From positions 101,866,001 to 101,930,000 of the forward strand of contig OZ024742.1 of the NCBI GenBank assembly GCA_964016885.1: a stretch of DNA of 64,000 nt, written 5' to 3'. The translations under genes and the position numbers were made by a program. The number at the start of each line of letters is the position of its first letter. Within the stretch, counting starts at the first letter, position 1. This document shows positions 2,104 through 34,028 of the stretch, one piece after another. Source of the stretch: Eledone cirrhosa. Taxonomy: Eukaryota. The notes under the pieces are model-generated. The model saw only the letters and a list, made by a program, of their open reading frames with translations. It was not told the origin of the DNA and did not search any database.

Positions 2104-4344
2104 TTAATTGTAAGTTGTGATGTTGCTGTTCCACTCATATTTTCTATTTAATTTTGGTTTTAATTCTTTTATGCTTACTGCCTCTGTAATTTGCCTAAAC
2201 ATTGCGTCTTTCTTGTGTGTGGATTCTATTTTTATTTCTATGCTCTCTAATTTACCCCTGTGTTCTATCTTAGCATGTTGGTAGAGCACAGATGATTCTT
2301 TACTATCTTGGAGGTCTCGCCAGTGTTCATTTATTCGTTCCCCTATACTACGAGCTGTCTCACCTATGTACACTATATTTTTGTTTCTACATTGTCCTTC
2401 AGTACATCTTATGCTATATACTACATTTCTAGTTTTACAGTTAATATGGGGGCTTATTTTACAGGTTATACATTTCTTATCTATACATGAGGGTCTTTGG
2501 AACGGGTATGTCTTGCTAATAAGTGTTTTTACGGAGGTACCAGGTCTTTCTACTATCTTAATATTGAGATTATGTTTCTTTAGGGCCCTTCTAAATTTGT
2601 AGGCTAGTTCGCCTCTAGGGGTTGTATTGATGAACATTACACTCTGGTATTTATTGCTATCATACCATGAGTTTATTCTATTGGCCTTGTTCTTAGTTCT
2701 TTCTATTCTATTCCAAAATTTGCTCCTATACAAGGGGCAGGTCCCATTTATGTCATTATTTACCATTTTTTCCCATTTGGTTCTGGCTCCTTTATACACT
2801 CTGATTCTATCTCTCTGATTGTAGCCAGAGAACTGCATACGGTGGATGAAGTGTTGTATGTGTCTCTCTAGTTCTTCGGGGTTGCACATGCGGGACACAT
2901 TTCTCATCACCCGTACCAAATCCGCAATCAGTATGTTGATTTTGGTATGGTCCGAAATGGCCGAGTTTCGGTGGATCAGATGTTTGGAAGTCATGGGTTT
3001 GGCATAATGGGAATGGAGGATTTGTTTTTGGTTGTTAATAGTATCTAACCAGAGCTCTGTGTCTAGTACAGGTAATCGATGGTTGGGGTGTCTACTTGGG
3101 TAGTCTATAGTAACTCTAATGCTCTGGTGGATGGAGTTTGCTATTTGCTGGATGCTTTCCATTGTGTTTTTCTCTGGTTCCTGACTGTTCTTTAGTGGGG
3201 GTGTCTTAACTACGATGTTTATATCATCTACGTAGCGGGAGTACATTATCAGGGTTAAGCTGTCTTCTAATTGTTCATTAAGTTTTTGTTTAAGTCTACT
3301 GTCCCACCATACCATGAACAAGTTAGCTATGTCGCCTGCAATGCTAACACCAATGGCTGCTCCTTCCTCTTGGGCATATGTTTTACCATTAAATTTGAAC
3401 ATATGTTCCTTAAGGGTTAATTTTATGCTGGCCCCTACCGCATCTGCAATCATTTTCTTCAGTTCATCGTGGTTTTCGGGTGTCCGTATGGCTCTGGTCC
3501 ACCCGTTCCATCTATCTGTGTGGGTTTTCTTGGCCATTGAGGTAATGGTAGGTGGTCTGCCTCTTGCTGGTCTTGTAGGGCACAGGTTGCTAAGGTTATA
3601 AGTGTCTAGGTAACTATTACTATGAGTAAGCTTAAGTAGAAGTCCCAGCTCACTGGTATCAATCCCACGGAACTCAACCTTGCTCTCGCTGATCATTTCG
3701 ACGCATTTCTCCACAGCAAAATCCACGTCAATAGATGGATACAGGGACACAACATCCATACTGCCTATTATGCAGTTTGTTAGGTCCCCAGATCGGTTAC
3801 CCGCGCCGATTCTGCTGAGGAGGTCCTCCGTGCTGTCACACACATCTGGGGACATCTCAATGATGGGGCGTATGATCTGGGAGAGGAAGTAGGACAGTCT
3901 GTAGTTACTAGCAATGTTAGCCCCACAGACTGGCCGTGTTGGTGGTCCCGCGACAGGGTCCCAGCCCGTTTTATGGTCTTTTCGAAGCCCATACAACGCC
4001 GGCACGTCATTGTTCCAGGCCTGGAAGTTGTTGGCAGTCCTTTTGTTGGGCTGCATTATATTTGTCCACATCACCATATGGGCATTGAGGGTTTTTTCTC
4101 TATCCTCATGCTCCTGTGGTGTTACCTCTCTTGTGTTAGTGATGTGGGGTTGCATTGCCTGGATGTAGTTTGGCAGGCTGTCAACCAACATTCTGCCAGA
4201 CTTGTCTGTTGGAAAGCATGCTATCTCTCCATTACGTGAGCGCTGCATGAGCTTACGCAAGCCATTTGCAGATTCTTCTCCCAGTTGCTGGGCCTTTATT
4301 CTATTATGCTTCTTGCTATACTGTTCTATAATATTTCTAAGTTC
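2104..4344 (-). CDS. PLE reverse transcriptase with C-terminal GIY-YIG endonuclease (5'-truncated, ~746 uninterrupted codons)
   Basis: Motifs [44 protein letters not shown], a Cys-rich linker ([10 protein letters not shown]), and VVYSIRC..C..YIGETAR..ERINEH..H. The N-terminal part of the track ORF is microsatellite. Confidence 0.93.
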
Positions 4345-4346
4345 GA

Positions 4347-4676
4347 TGTATATGTATGGATATGTATATGTATGTATATATATATATGTATATGTATGTA
4401 TATATATATGTATATGTATGTATATGTATATGTATGTATATATATGTATATGTATGTATATATATATATATATATGTGTATGTATATATACATGTATGTA
4501 TGTATATATACATGTATGTATGTATATATACATGTATGTATGTATATATACATGTATGTATGTATATATACATGTATGTATGTATATATATATGTATGTA
4601 TGTATGTATATATATATATGTATGTATGTATGTATGTATATATGTATGTATATATATATGTATGTATGTATGTATA

Positions 4677-4709
<33 letters not shown>

Positions 4710-4780
4710 ATATATATATGTATGTATGTATGTATGTATATATGTATGTATGTATATATGTATGTATGTATATATATATG

Positions 4781-4811
<31 letters not shown>

Positions 4812-5262
4812 ATATATATGTATATATGTATGTATATATGTGTATGTATGTATATATATATGTATATATGTATGTATATATGTGTATATATGTATATATG
4901 TATGTATATATGTATATATGTGTATATATATATGTATATATGTATATGTATATGTATATATGTATATGTATATATATATATGTATATGTATATATATGTG
5001 TATATATATGTATATATGTATATATATATGTATATATGTATATATATATGTATATATATATGTATATATATATGTATATATATATGTATATATATATGTA
5101 TATATATATGTATATATATATGTATATATATATGTATATATATGTGTATATATATGTGTATATATATGTGTATATATATGTGTATATATATATGTATATA
5201 TATATGTATATATATATGTATGTATATATATATGTATATGTATATGTATATATATATGTATG

Positions 5263-5294
<32 letters not shown>

Positions 5295-5303
5295 TATATA
5301 TAT
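4347..5303. repeat. Compound (TA)n/(TATG)n microsatellite
   Basis: Directly visible. Confidence 0.97.
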
Positions 5304-5535
5304 AAATGTAAGTATGTATGTATACGTACATACATATATGTATACAGACGTACAGTAGCATGCATATATATATACATATATACATACAGGTACACATACA
5401 TATATGCACGCATCAGTTTAGCGGACGCTTATTATAACGCCGCTTTGTTCGTTTGTCAACAAACTGAACAGCCTGAATTTATGCCATACGGTGTTAAGGA
5501 AACCACGTCACCTTTTTGTTCAACACTGACACAGG

Positions 5536-5580
5536 AACGATGTACTAGTTTCAAGCTTGTTAGCTATCATCAGCACCGTT
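5536..5580 (-). ncRNA. Hammerhead ribozyme motif, family A copy 1
   Basis: AACGGTG-CTGATGA-TAGCT(AACA)AGCTT-GAAA-CTAG-TA-CATCGTT on the minus strand. Confidence 0.82.
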
Positions 5581-5868
5581 TACCCACCTGCCAGATAGTT
5601 GAACGTTCGAAAGTATATATTTTCCTTATGAAAATTAACGGCTGAGCAGCCTAATTTGCATATTGAGTGAGTTAAATCGGTCAGGCATACCGAAAACGAT
5701 AAGTTGAAAAAAAAATGAAAACGAAATTTCATTTCTCACTCTTAGTATGGCAGTTACTTAAATGTAAGTATGTATGTATACGTACATACATATATGTATA
5801 CAGACGTACAGTAGCATGCATATATATATATATATATATATACATATATACATACAGGTACACATACA

Positions 5869-5926
5869 CTAGCAACCCGTCTAACCCATGCTAGCGTGGA
5901 AGAACGGACGTAAAACGGTGATGATG
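5869..5926 (+). mobile_element. 58-bp RTE 3' tail insertion into family A unit
   Basis: Matches the RTE end at ~42250-42303. Absent from the other units. Flanked by an ATACA duplication (5864-5868 and 5927-5931). Confidence 0.8.
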
Positions 5927-6065
5927 ATACATATATGCACGCATCAGTTTAGCGGACGCTTATTATAACGCCGCTTTGTTCTTTTGTCAACAAACTGAAC
6001 AGATGAATGTATGCCATATGGTGTTAAGGCAACCACGTCATCTTTTTGTTCAACACTGACACAGG

Positions 6066-6110
6066 AACGATGTACTAGTTTCAAGCTTGTTAGCTATCAT
6101 CAGCACCGTT
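6066..6110 (-). ncRNA. Hammerhead ribozyme motif, family A copy 2
   Basis: Identical to copy 1. Confidence 0.82.
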
Positions 6111-6266
6111 TACCCATCTGCCAGATAGTTGAACGTTCGAAAGTATATATTTTCCTTATGAAAATTTACGGCTGAGCAGCCTAATTTGCATATTGAGTGA
6201 GTTAAATCGGTATAATAAGCGTCCGCTAAACTGATGCGTGCATATATGTATGTGTACCTGTATGTA

Positions 6267-6304
<38 letters not shown>

Positions 6305-6540
6305 TGCTACTGTACGTCTGTATACATATATGTATGTACGTATACATACATACTTACATTAAAGTAAGTGCCATACTAAGAGTGAGAAATGAAATTTCGT
6401 TTTCATTTTTTTTTCAACTTATCGTTTTCGGTATGCCTGACCGATTTAACTCACTCAATATGCATATTAGGCTGCTCAGCCGTTAATTTTCATAAGGAAA
6501 ATATATACTTTCGAACGTTCAACTATCTGGCAGATGGGTA

Positions 6541-6585
6541 AACGGTGCTGATGATAGCTAACAAGCTTGAAACTAGTACATCGTT
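6541..6585 (+). ncRNA. Hammerhead ribozyme motif, family A copy 3
   Basis: AACGGTGCTGATGATAGCTAACAAGCTTGAAACTAGTACATCGTT on the plus strand. Confidence 0.82.
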
Positions 6586-6994
6586 CCTGTGTCAGTGTTG
6601 AACAAAAAGGTGACGTGGTTGCCTTAACACCGTATGGCATAAATTCAGGCTGTTCGGTTTGTTGACAAACAAACAAAGTGGCGTTATAATAAGCGTCCGC
6701 TAAACTGATGCGTGCATATATGTATGTGTACCTATATGTATATATATATATATATGCATGCTACTGTACGTCTGTATACATATATGTATGTACGTATACA
6801 TACATACTTACATTTAAGTAAGTGCCATACTAAGAGTGAGAAATGAAATTTCGTTTTCATTTTTTTTTCAACTTATCGTTTTCGGTATGCCTGACCGATT
6901 TAACTCACTCAATATGTAAATTAGGCTGCTCAGCCGTTAATTTTCATAAGGAAAATATATACTTTCGAACGTTCAACTATCTGGCAGATGGGTA

Positions 6995-7039
6995 AACGGT
7001 GCTGATGATAGCTAACAAGCGTGAAACTAGTACATCGTT
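6995..7039 (+). ncRNA. Hammerhead ribozyme motif, family A copy 4 (stem II substitution)
   Basis: Same motif, with AAGCGT in place of AAGCTT in stem II. Confidence 0.72.
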
Positions 7040-7194
7040 CCTGTGTCAGTGTTGAACAAAAAGGTGACATGGTTGCCTTAACACCGTATGGCATAAATTC
7101 AGGCTGTTCAGTTTGTTGACAAACGAACAAAGCGGCGTTATAATAAGTGTCCGCTAAACTGATGCGTGCATATATGTATGTGTACCTGTATGTA

Positions 7195-7232
<38 letters not shown>

Positions 7233-7373
7233 TGCTACTGTACGTCTGTATGCATATATGTATGTACGTATACATACATACTTACATTTAAGTAAGTGCC
7301 ATACTAAGAGTGAGAAATGAAATTTCGTTTTCATTTTTATTTTCAACTTATTTATATATATATATATATGAAT

Positions 7374-9975: not shown

Positions 9976-11184
9976 ATCATCATCATCATCAACGTTTAAC
10001 GTCCGTGTTCCACGCTTGCATGGGTTTGGACGGGGGTAGTCCCACTTGAGGCAAGAGTGATTGTCTTGCTCGCATAGGACTGTCTGGCAGGTTTTCTACA
10101 GTTGGATGCCCTTCCTAACACCAACCACATTTACAGTGTGGGTCTGGGAGGTTTTTACCGTGTTGCCTACACGGCCACATTACAGTGTGGACTGTGTGTT
10201 TTTTTGTCGTGACACCTACACGATCTCATTTGTTTCGGCCTGGATGGCGCGGCACCAACATAACTTTACATAGAACGGGGTGGTGTGGATGGGGTGGGGG
10301 TGGTGGTGCTGGGACGGGGTGTATTTTGTTAGAGATGACTACTGGCTGGAGTAGGTTTTACTATATATTTAGGTAAGGCGGGTCTTCGCTGTTACTGAGT
10401 ACCGCCAAAGGTCTCGGTCCAGTGACATTGTCTTGGAGAGGTGTAAGTGTGTGATGTCGGAGTTTATCAGCTCGTCCCAGGTTTTTCTAGGTCTGCCTAT
10501 TCCGTGACTACCGTCTATCTTTATTGCCCTGCACTTTGTTATACAGCTATCGACTTTCATGCGCATCACGTGTCCATACCAACGTAGCCTTCTCTCGAGT
10601 AAACAACATCTGATCACTCTTATCTCTAATTTTTTCCTTAGTTCGTTTCTGCTTTGCCGTTCACGTATATTACTGTTACACATCCAGCGGAGCATGCAAG
10701 CTTCGTTCCTCTCTAGTCTGCGTATATCCTCTGCACACAATGCCCAGGTCTCACTGCCATGCAACATTGCTGTTCGTATGCAGGCATCGTACAACCTGCC
10801 TTTCATTTTTAGGGAGAACCCTTTAGCAGCTAATAGTGGTATAAGCTCTCTGAACTTTTTCCAACCAGTTCTGACTCTAGCTACAGTACTTTCAGAGCAC
10901 CCTCCCCCACTGCTGATTTTATCGCCCAGGTAACGGAAGCTGTCCACTATTTCTATAGAACCCTCTGCGCAATTGAAAGAGCTAGTATTCTGTGGGCACT
11001 TGCTGCTACTTATTGCACCAAAACACCGGCCACATGTAAAATCTATGTTCTTAGTTAGCTTACCTGTGATCCCACTACATCTTTTATGCACCCATACTTT
11101 GCATTTAGGACATAAAATGGAGTTTCTACCTACGCCTTTCCTACACACCGAGCACGACCATTTCCCAGAAGGGACCGCCGCCTT
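9976..11184 (-). mobile_element. 5'-truncated RTE-clade LINE
   Basis: C-terminal ORF, 3' UTR and (GAT)n tail, embedded in microsatellite. Confidence 0.92.
10369..11184 (-). CDS. RTE ORF C-terminal part: PHD-type finger, FRYLG thumb, [11 protein letters not shown] motifs
   Basis: CSVC-x10-CPKC-x4-HKRC-x14-CGRC, followed by [24 protein letters not shown] and GRPRKTW. Open to the stop codon. Confidence 0.88.
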
Positions 11185-16140
<4,956 letters not shown>

Positions 16141-17086
16141 ATAAAAACAAATAACGAAACAAAATTAAACCTCGTTTCGTTTGTAACTCACTTTTGTATG
16201 ACTGACGCTTAAACAATTAAGTTAAAAATGTACATCCACATATGTATACTGAAATACTAGTATGCATATGAATACACACACGTATACATATGTAGATGTA
16301 CCGAGTTTTTCACTGGTCACTTTACTGTGAGTGTCCAGCTATTCTGTATGTAAACACACAGACAAACCGGTTTTTAGAGTCATACTGGTTTTTGAGGAAA
16401 CACCTTTCCTCTATTCTCCAGAAAGCCAGACAAGGAATATTGAACTAGTTTCGATGTTGTTACATCTCATCAGCAATATTTACCTATCTTCCGGCCTCTC
16501 TAGAGAATCGTAAAAGCACATATCGTTATATGCTTTTTTTATGAAAATTAGTAGTGGGCAGACTAATTTGCATAGAGCGTGAGTACGTACCGGTTCAACG
16601 GAGACGATAAAAACAAATAACGAAACGAAATTAAACCTCGTTTCGTTTGTAACTCACTTTTGTATGACTGACGCTTAAACAATTAAGTTAAAAATGTACA
16701 TCCACATATGTATACTGAAATACTAGTATGCATATGAATACACACACGTATACATATGTAGATGTACCGAGTTTTTCACTGGTCACTTTACTGTGAGTGT
16801 CCAGCTATTCTGTATGTAAACACACAGACAAACCGGTTTTTAGAGTCATACTGGTTTTTGAGGAAACACCTTTCCTCTATTCTCCAGAAAGCCAGACAAG
16901 GAATATTGAACTTAATTGTTTAAGCGTCAGTCATACAAAAGTGAGTTACAAACGAAACGAGGTTTAATTTCGTTTCGTTATTTGTTTTTATCGTCTCCGT
17001 TGAACCGGTACGTACTCACGCTCTATGCAAATTAGTCTGCCCACTACTAATTTTCAAAAACCTCGCAAAACTAATTCATCGCCGTT
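16141..17086 (-). mobile_element. Non-coding HHR repeat family B: 466-bp period, ~1.65 units plus 148-bp inverted segment
   Basis: 16141-16442 is repeated at 16607-16908. 16909-17056 is the reverse complement of 16542-16689. Confidence 0.88.
16436..16480 (-). ncRNA. Hammerhead ribozyme motif, family B (canonical minimal type I)
   Basis: AATATTG-CTGATGA-GATGT(AACA)ACATC-GAAA-CTAG-TT-CAATATT: perfect stems I and II and a palindromic helix III. Confidence 0.9.
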
Positions 17087-17139: not shown

Positions 17140-17180
<41 letters not shown>

Positions 17181-17182
<2 letters not shown>

Positions 17183-17365
17183 TTTGTTTCTGAATTTGTT
17201 TAGCAAGATTCTTTATCTGAAATCGTGTGTTGAAACCGATATTGTTATACTTTGGGAGGGTCATGTTGCCAATAAGAAACACACGGACCAGTTGCTTTCA
17301 CTTCAACTTATTATATATTTATAAATTTATAAGTTTATAAATCTATAAATTTCTTCCAAAGTATT
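17181..17365 (-). mobile_element. PLE pseudo-LTR/tail fragment (same family as 1606-1710)
   Basis: 17241-17340 matches 1605-1710 and extends ~60 bp beyond that copy's 3' end. Confidence 0.8.
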
Positions 17366-17641: not shown

Positions 17642-17722
17642 TATTGTTATACTTTGGGAGGGTCATGTTGTCAACACAAGATTTCAGATAAAAAATCTTG
17701 CTAAACAAATTCAGAAACGAAA
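17642..17722. mobile_element. Small inverted PLE tail insertion
   Basis: 17642-17670 equals the PLE 3' end on the minus strand. 17671-17722 is the reverse complement of ~17181-17233. Confidence 0.75.
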
Positions 17723-18157: not shown

Positions 18158-18488
18158 ATCATCATCATCATCACCGTTTTACGTCCGTTCTTCCACGCTA
18201 GCATGGGTTAGACGGGTTGTCCTGTTGTGGGCAGTGTCTGGTCGGCTGACCATGCCTTGCTCATACAGGAACTGATCTGGCTTGATTTCTACAGCTGGAT
18301 GCCCTTCCTAACACCAACCTCATTTACAGTGAGTGCTGGGTGCTTTTTCGTGGCGCCTACACGTCCACTTTACAGTGTGGGCTGGGTGCTTTTTTGCCGT
18401 GGCACCTCCACGGCCACCTTGCGGTGGAGGGGGGGGGGGCATATTGTTTATATGCTTCAGCATGTACCCATGGGAGGTCGGGTACCCT
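18158..18488 (-). mobile_element. RTE 3' UTR fragment (second subfamily) with (GAT)n tail
   Basis: Reverse complement of ~41990-42303. Confidence 0.85.
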
Positions 18489-24467: not shown

Positions 24468-25046
24468 ATATGTATATATATATATATGTATATGTATATA
24501 TATGTATATATATATGAATATATATGTATATGTATATGAATGTATATGTAAATATATGTATATATATATGTATATGAATATATATGTATATGAATATATA
24601 TGTATATATATATGTATGTATGTATATGTATGTATGTATATGTATATATGTATATGAATATATATGTATATATGTATATGAATATATATGTATATATGTA
24701 TATGAATATATATGTATATATGTATGTATATGAATATATATGTATATATGTATGTATATGAATATATATGTATATATGTATGTATATGAATATATATGTA
24801 TATATGTATGTATATGTATATATATATGTATATGTATATATATATGTATATGAATATATATGTATATATATATATATATGTATGTATGTGAATATATATG
24901 AATATATATGTATATATATATATGTATGTATGTATGTAAATATATATATATATATATATGTATATATATGTATGTATGTAAATATATATGTATATATATA
25001 TGTATGTATATGTATGTATATGTATATATGTATGTATATATATATG

Positions 25047-32251: not shown

Positions 32252-32680
32252 CATCATCACCGTTTTACGTCCATTCTTCCACGCTAGCATGGTTTAGATG
32301 GGTTGTCCTGTCGTGGGCAGTGTCTGGTCGGCTGACCTTGTCTTGCTCATACGGGAACTGATTCTGGCTTGATTTTTTTACAGCTGGATGCCCTTCCTAA
32401 CACCAACCTCAGTTACAGTGAGTGATTGGTGTTTTTATCCCGTGGCGCCTACACGTCCACTTTACAGTGTGGGCTGGGTGCTTTTTTGCCGTGGCACCTC
32501 CACGACCACTTTGCAGTGGAATGATAGGGACCCCAGTCCCTATCATCTCATTTCTACAGCTGAGTAAACTGGAGCAATGTGAAATAAAGTGTCTTGCTCA
32601 AGGAAACCACACATCACCCGGTCTGAGAATTGAACTCATAACCTTTCGATTGCAAGCCCAATGCTCTAACCACTAAGCCA
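32252..32680 (-). mobile_element. tRNA-derived SINE with RTE 3' tail
   Basis: Minus strand: A box TGGCTTAGTGG, B box GAGTTCAATTC, a CCTTGAGCAAGACACT central domain, then RTE 3' UTR and GAT tail. Second copy at 50815-51152. Confidence 0.85.
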
Positions 32681-33493: not shown

Positions 33494-33552
33494 TTTTATA
33501 TATATTTCGAAGGTACTGTGCTTTCTTTTCAGTACGTCCTCGTCAGATAGAA
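33494..33552 (-). ncRNA. Hammerhead motif, family C (left arm, stem I/III register damaged)
   Basis: Same core and stem II. A 3-nt loss after GAAA and a stem I mismatch. Confidence 0.55.
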
Positions 33553-33667
33553 TACATGAATTGATGTATGACATACCTCAACGGTCTTGATGGTTCAATT
33601 CCAGTACTGCCAATACTGGAATTGAACCATCAATACCGTTGAGGCGTGTCATACATCAATTCATCTA

Positions 33668-33730
33668 TTTTATCTGACGAGGACGTACTGAAAAAAACAG
33701 CTCAGTACCTTCGAAATATATATAATAAAA
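33668..33730 (+). ncRNA. Hammerhead ribozyme motif, family C (right arm)
   Basis: TTTTAT-CTGACGA-GGACGTACTGA(10 nt)TCAGTACCTTC-GAAA-TATATA-TA-ATAAAA. Confidence 0.8.
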
Positions 33731-34028
33731 CATATATTTTGATTATGTGAATGTCTTCATTTATTAATATTCTGAATAATATTAATAACTCCAGAAAACT
33801 GTCTTGTAGAATGCTTTTAATCTATTGTACTTACTGCTCGATGCGCCGAACGGCGCGGAAGAATCTAAGACTAAGATATATATATATATAATAAATAGAG
33901 AACAAAAAACAGAGAGGCAGTACAAATGATATTAGTATTAGTTTCACGCTTGAGAGTGGGGCGTTATATATAATGTGTTTGTGTGTGTATATATATGTGT
34001 GTTTGTGTGTGTATATATATATATATAT

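Follow-up and report, generated by a model that had tools for sequence, protein, structure and literature searches.

At positions 5304-7351 of the window, i.e. the whole 64,000-nt stretch of Eledone cirrhosa DNA analysed here, two runs of a hammerhead-bearing repeat meet head-to-head between (TA)n tracts, and the question is what kind of element they represent, which enzyme wrote them and from which RNA template. From the array, its relatives in the same genome and published systems (cited throughout for the parts of each source that were accessible), we propose that the array is probably a high-copy non-coding hammerhead retrozyme, its arms having likely been written by the reverse transcriptase (RT)-endonuclease of a Penelope-like element (PLE) rolling round a monomer RNA circle.

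Anatomy of the array and its hammerheads

The array consists of a minus-strand arm followed by a plus-strand arm, which contain 1.84 and 2.4 units, respectively, and join at 6208-6211. A preliminary description of this locus had counted 1.9 and 2.4 units; the plus-strand count stands, but the minus-strand count falls to 1.84 because 58 nt of that arm belong to an inserted foreign repeat. All four hammerhead ribozymes (HHRs) that it listed are present, with the HHR-sense strands pointing outward in both arms as described, but the positions given for them (5536, 6066, 6541 and 6995) mark the outer ends of helix I, and the cores begin 7 nt further on.

4351..5303, no strand: left target, a degenerate (TA)n/(TATG)n microsatellite
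5304..6211, minus strand: left arm, 1.84 units, 5'-truncated at unit position 79; its outer end is the family's "short" 3' end on (TA)n
5536..5580, minus strand: HHR 1, type I, core 5543-5573, predicted cut after GUA at 5543
5651..5662, minus strand: 12-mer TATGCAAATTAG, identical to the -78 element of a host U6 gene; TATA-like box at 5614-5619
5869..5926, no strand: later insertion in the left arm, the 58-nt 3' end of an (ATG)n-tailed repeat
6066..6110, minus strand: HHR 2, type I, core 6073-6103, predicted cut after GUA at 6073
6181..6192, minus strand: 12-mer, intact; TATA-like box at 6144-6149
6208..6211, no strand: head-to-head junction of the two 5'-truncated arms, microhomology of 1-2 nt
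6208..7351, plus strand: right arm, 2.4 units, 5'-truncated at unit position 321; its outer end is the "tail" 3' end on (TA)n
6459..6470, plus strand: 12-mer with one private change; TATA-like box at 6502-6507
6541..6585, plus strand: HHR 3, type I, core 6548-6578, predicted cut after GUA at 6578
6913..6924, plus strand: 12-mer with one private change; TATA-like box at 6956-6961
6995..7039, plus strand: HHR 4, type I, core 7002-7032, predicted cut after 7032; a private T>G breaks one helix II pair
7290..7351, plus strand: tail of 61 nt, the start of a further unit, with a hairpin and a T-run; on one arm only
7352..7370, no strand: right target, (TA)n, then another, (ATC)n-ended repeat

The left arm is composed of a full 456-nt unit at 5304-5759 and unit positions 79-454, and the right arm of unit positions 321-454, full units at 6362-6815 and 6816-7289 and a further 61 nt. 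Each unit contains a short TA tract (38-58 nt), as had been reported, and with regard to a target-site duplication of the array the flanks on both sides are (TA)n. The 58-nt insertion is bordered by a 5-bp target duplication, ATACA (5864-5868 and 5927-5931), and 56 nt of it are identical (100%) to window positions 18164-18219. The 3' part of a LINE reading frame, which we take to be RTE-like, lies on the minus strand at 10369-11186 and may have given rise to the short repeats with (ATG)n tails, including the one inserted in the left arm. A weak tRNA match (31.9 bits) on the minus strand at 32623-32680 is probably a SINE head.

The units are non-coding, as had been proposed: the longest sense frame is 51 aa, tblastn returned no match to two PLE proteins, Pfam gave none for the 79-aa antisense frame, and the RT plus GIY-YIG reading frame of an autonomous PLE is absent. 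The predicted monomer circle folds at -132 kcal/mol with 63% of its bases paired and a z-score of -6.4 against 60 shuffles, which is inflated by the TA tract; a TA-free 134-nt part gives z -2.1. The preliminary description also envisaged about 900 bp of dsRNA on read-through. The fold-back is possible, but would measure about 850 bp at 94-96% identity with a 230-nt loop, and it would require an outside promoter because the units of both arms themselves yield the same sense strand. Two of the four upstream 12-mers, both in the right arm, and one of the four HHRs are mutated in this copy, the left-arm 12-mers being intact; it is an ordinary, slightly aged family member, and nothing marks it as conserved.

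Each hammerhead follows the pattern CTGATGA..GAAA..GTA, with a helix I of 7 bp, for which a bulged extension is predicted, a helix II of 4 bp above a U-U opposition, and a helix III of 1 bp closed by a palindromic CUAG loop. Pairing between two copies can extend to 6 bp, in the dimer mode set out in PMC4209133, which upholds the suggestion that a dimer context is needed. The "minimal" label does not hold. The minimal HHR of PLEs has a helix II of 7-8 bp, a helix I of 4-5 bp and no helix III (PMC4209133), features that the array hammerhead lacks; it shows the core (CUGANGA, GAAA and UH), helices and palindromic loop of a canonical type I HHR and is, by the 2014 definitions, such an HHR with a 1-bp helix III. 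Across seven variants from two families the core is invariant except at N7 and H17 and 92% of cells are paired; six of the 13 helix pairs change on both sides, which, the two families being related, represents few independent events. Rfam made no hammerhead call on the array at gathering score, and no hammerhead appeared among the 150 listed of 177 weak matches, which were TA-rich microRNA models.

The U-U opposition at the base of helix II had been cited as a ground for doubting activity. It is indeed common to all four copies, and the copy at 7002 breaks a second helix II pair in addition. It is, however, family-wide, is replaced by G-C in a sister family, and is known from the active axolotl HHR_Amex2, whose cleavage reaches 22% for the monomer and is higher for the dimer (PMC7229834), so the doubt is not supported. 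As evidence on the other side, 8 of 9 Xenopus retrozyme dimers failed to cleave in a vertebrate survey (bioRxiv 10.64898/2026.07.22.740005).

The sister family (family B; the family of the array is called family A below) aligns along the whole unit, although only two blocks score by blastn, one of them being the HHR. A family B insertion at window 16150-17085 is also head-to-head, with a 466-nt unit and a 71-nt tail. Its right arm continues at 17056-17084 into the tail of a second PLE family, with 29 nt matching at 100%, a fusion that reflects either a template switch or a deletion. An inverted pair of CTGACGAG...GAAA motifs at window 33500-33760 does not fit the type I fold and is probably a rearranged hammerhead family. 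Two further HHR repeat families were seen at L034 (HHR at 4946) and at L031 and L173, one of them palindrome-rich with at least 8 copies in the sample, and one match to the motif-plus-HHR pattern outside families A and B, at L159, looks like an old solo relative.

Copy number and insertion footprint

The copy-number check proposed in the preliminary description was run over the whole 3.0-Gb genome. The exact 43-nt HHR pattern of family A gave 9,990 matches (5,093 + 4,897) and the reversed control none; the matches are not due to chance. From 48 regions around the first 100 of these matches, on one chromosome, we obtained 52 insertions with an HHR, a sample that requires an exact HHR in one arm and is thereby biased toward young, long copies. 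The sampled insertions hold from 1 to at least 18 units. Their layouts are simple head-to-head (31), complex but containing a head-to-head (2) and single-armed (19), and none of the 52 is purely tail-to-tail. The inversion, which had been regarded as special or as a possible chimera, is thus present in 33 of the 52.

PLE insertions are described as carrying an inverted 5'-truncated copy and a tail on one end, with a bias toward microsatellite targets (Craig et al., PMC8557442), and a PLE protein has been shown to cleave AT-rich DNA on both strands and to initiate at two positions of the RNA, one at each boundary of the tail (Frangieh et al., PMC11167929). Correspondingly, the inverted arm of the 33 insertions is 5'-truncated, and family A copies end at two fixed sites with a separation of 61 nt, of which the "short" one was found 38 times and the "tail" one 43 times; (TA)n adjoins 74 of these 81 ends. 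In every one of the 24 two-armed insertions that are contiguous, a short end is paired with a tail end (chance ~5e-8; 27/27 before three non-contiguous pairs were dropped), a rule that the array at 5304-7351 obeys. An intact, young autonomous PLE of the same genome, a truncated copy of which adjoins the array, behaves in the same way: 21 minus-plus pairs were fetched, and in all 20 with both ends in view there was one short end and one ~59-nt tail end on (TA)n. Its copies also occur as tandems, and both end types were seen too in a third PLE-like family (21,315 matches). Because this footprint matches both the PLE of the genome and the published insertion and enzyme behaviour of PLEs, we infer that two-ended priming by a PLE enzyme produced the head-to-head form. 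Classical twin priming on one linear RNA was rejected, since the inverted arm starts at a fixed end and not where the other arm stops. In several two-armed PLE copies both arms are cut at the same position, as judged from open frames of the same length, pointing to a fold-back join in some events; the arms of two family A insertions (L037 and L055) are likewise cut at the same position.

The PLE adjoining the array (window 2104-4344, minus strand) is 5'-truncated, with a terminal repeat that reaches 1605 and an HHR-like motif at 1767-1801. DKG-like, YxDD, CxxxxCxxC linker and GIY-YIG motifs were recognized by eye, and its class rests on these motifs, Pfam having given a weak RVT_1 match once and otherwise none; from its sequence the element fits the description of Neptune in PMC8557442. 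Its family appears very young, since 150 of 150 scored copies are identical over a 138-aa endonuclease query and some are intact, with open frames of ~1,270 aa. The terminal repeat contains the motifs GCGCATGCGC and AAATGGCG, which are presumably NRF1- and YY1-like.

By blastn, the family A unit showed nothing significant against the terminal repeats of the adjoining PLE and a second related PLE (best match 11 nt), and no 3'-end likeness to the autonomous families was found (two compared by blastn, the third by eye and by fusion pattern). The third PLE-like family, whose RT belongs to another clade and whose tail is ~78 nt, is fused to 2 of the 19 single-armed insertions (L038 and L058), the family A tail arm being joined directly head-to-head to the short arm of the third family. 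This family is not claimed as the helper, because the fusion pattern, searched genome-wide with one anchor in both orientations, gave 0 matches. Tiny PLE remnants lie at window 17180-17360 and 17645-17722; the latter is 78 nt long and itself head-to-head, flanked by (TA)n tracts, with a short end on one side and a tail end on the other.

Haplotypes and the RNA template

Among 152 aligned copies, the mean distance was 0.5% within an arm, 0.9% between arms and 3.9% between insertions. With the T-run masked, variants in 36 multi-unit insertions were present in all units in 210 cases, in a single unit in 194 and in some units in only 6. A larger set (190 copies, 71 insertions) comprised 32 haplotypes among 49 multi-unit insertions, and 13 of its 28 rare insertion-wide variants covered both arms. 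Since each insertion carries one haplotype, its units were born together from one unit sequence, the outcome to be expected of rolling round a circle; stepwise duplication would be expected to leave nested variants, and an aged linear multimer the same private variants on both arms. A single haplotype over all units of both arms agrees with the earlier suggestion of a multimeric reverse transcript of a small ribozyme RNA and, as a pattern of sequence variants, points to a single monomer as template.

In the array itself, the four units have three variants in common, including G140A, which is found in 1 of 129 foreign copies, and 18 private variants, none common to two units. Its between-arm distance (2.9%) is close to the foreign median (3.1%) because of these private changes, so the array is older than most of the sample and only the common rare variant links its arms. 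Of the mapped 5' ends, the 60 that lie clear of the TA tract all fall more than 3 nt from the site of HHR cleavage. The cDNA therefore passes this site, and a cut linear monomer was rejected as template. Rare insertion-wide variants gave no signal of A-to-I scars (A>G 4, T>C 4), and the depletion of template variants in the HHR and motif block was not significant (5/50 versus 36/176 private variants, p = 0.10).

The insertion could also be of PLE type but written from an uncut linear multimer of a young homogeneous array, with the HHR as a passenger or brake and no circle. We consider this unlikely, although several observations fit it: HHR cleavage is dispensable for insertion by the PAc PLE in vitro, where mostly uncut RNA is used (PMC11167929); autonomous PLE copies form tandems here; and in the dimer L017 both units share a change that destroys the GUA cut site. 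However, source arrays carry the 194 private variants counted in the 36 insertions, which both arms should repeat, and only 6 variants are partly shared. Moreover, many haplotypes are fixed over whole arrays, which would require a monomer step each time, and arrays of 15-18 units have only 2-3 private variants. Sources that are very young and uniform could still have supplied a linear multimer as template, and repeated template jumping is also possible.

It is considerably less probable that about one unit per arm was inserted and the tandems grew later by unequal exchange of DNA between unit and tail. In its favour, the unit and tail together make up a 61-bp direct repeat, arrays can be very long (30 units in family B), and such a route has been proposed (bioRxiv 10.64898/2026.07.22.740005), but it predicts nested, partly shared variants, of which there are 6 among 200 non-shared ones, and the tail-less short-end arms are also multi-unit (L034, L046, L117, L122 and the left arm at 5304-6211). 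Finally, palindromic repeats pose difficulties for assembly (PMC8557442), but the inversion is scarcely credible as a chimera of the assembly or as a dsRNA hairpin selected by the host, since the arms differ by 18 private changes, the 58-nt insertion and their outer ends, one layout rule holds at 24/24 loci, the copy bears no mark of conservation, with 2/4 motifs and 1/4 HHRs mutated, and a contig from an unrelated study (X6, depth 4; weak evidence) likewise joins opposite strands within the unit. The listed matches to contig sets X1-X3 (one sample) included no piece bridging 6211, which has no bearing either way, and sets X4-X6 held traces of the family only.

We therefore return to rolling reverse transcription of a monomer circle by a PLE enzyme, which may proceed in five steps. 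Units would be transcribed as multimers, possibly from the U6-like motif seen inside the unit. Neighbouring HHRs would pair as a dimer and release a 454-nt monomer, which a host ligase would close into a circle, as judged from other retrozymes. A PLE enzyme would then cut both (TA)n strands and prime cDNA from each DNA end at its own RNA site, the two sites being separated by 61 nt. Each cDNA would pass more than one unit and stop variably, and microhomology would join the arms, as the anatomy shows. The four units have since gained the 18 private changes and the one short insertion. A more specific form, in which a dimeric Penelope enzyme uses two fixed sites on a single RNA circle, cut out by the hammerhead, to prime from both ends of a (TA)n break and then rolls along that RNA, the circle carrying a captured U6-type promoter so that each new multimer could remake the circle, is put forward tentatively, as possible rather than probable.

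Known systems and the U6-like motif

From its sequence, family A is a new addition to the animal non-LTR retrozymes, with predicted cleavage and a PLE insertion footprint. Like the retrozymes of coral, mussel and axolotl (PMC7229834), it has short non-coding tandem units with one type I HHR each and GC below 50%; it also shares with them thousands of dispersed copies, a self-paired predicted circle and PLEs in the same genome (PMC7229834; bioRxiv 10.64898/2026.07.22.740005), and with axolotl HHR_Amex2 the U-U noted above. In contrast, its unit is 454-474 nt long versus 150-450 in PMC7229834, and RNA and cleavage have been demonstrated for published retrozymes, whereas family A is known here from genome sequence alone. 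No earlier description of family A was found in the literature within reach, which largely excluded subscription papers, repeat databases and supplements; the supplements (figure S9 of PMC7229834 and that of bioRxiv 10.64898/2026.07.22.740005) may already contain the same model.

With PLE insertions, including non-autonomous Chlamys such as MRC1, family A shares partial tandems, an inverted 5'-truncated copy, a one-sided tail, a microsatellite target and an HHR in the repeat (PMC8557442; PMC11167929; PMC4209133). Unlike PLEs, it has no RT or GIY-YIG frame, and its tail is 61 nt rather than 30-40; and while non-autonomous Chlamys resemble their partners at the 3' end, family A is unlike the three autonomous families seen. 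The retrozyme papers suggest, without demonstration, that PLEs move animal retrozymes via RNA circles as templates, and the accessible parts of these papers do not describe the tail, the two-armed rule, the (TA)n target or the haplotype test. Family A adds a countable footprint (short end, tail end and (TA)n) shared with an active PLE of the same genome, which, together with a haplotype pattern that demands a monomer template, lets the question be put directly in vitro, the RNA, the DNA target and the start sites all being defined. By implication, the genome contains thousands of long inverted repeats, from which outside promoters could produce dsRNA.

How such repeats are transcribed has a candidate answer in the second block conserved between families A and B, which begins with TATGCAAATTAG. 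This 12-mer is present in both families (chance in one unit ~0.001) and, 70-100 nt before an HHR core, occurs at 24,476 places genome-wide (control 0). Upstream of three types of U6 gene, of the best U6atac match and of the single MRP gene in the host, it is found as TATG[CG][AT]AAT[TG]AG at -77 to -79, in each case with a TATA at -30. It is absent upstream of 5 U1 and 3 U2 host genes, and also from 3 rearranged U6 array copies, 10/10 lower-scoring U6 matches and 5/6 U6atac matches; the U6 and U6atac matches that lack it look like pseudogenes. The spacing from motif to TATA is 43 nt in family A and 42 nt in family B versus 47-49 nt in the host genes. T-runs, which terminate Pol III, occur in the tail of the unit at lengths of 4-9, so that this polymerase should stop short of the following unit's motif and of a second HHR. 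On this sequence evidence, the odds that the unit holds a working internal promoter, for whichever polymerase, are about even.

An HHR repeat with promoter-like signals of its own, of the small-RNA-gene kind, has parallels in newt satellite 2, which has an snRNA-type internal promoter, and in the schistosome satellite, which has a Pol III promoter (PMC2220036). The newt promoter is reportedly Pol II (PMC2220036), whereas the family A motif matches host Pol III-type genes and not U1/U2, with a TATA spacing ~5 nt shorter. Among the host loci examined (L071, L072, L073, L099 and L125; L083-L098), the 12-mer at -78 of the Pol III-type genes is octamer-like and unusually close to the gene, and the U1/U2 genes carry TCAGT near -57 and a TATA-like box near -30.
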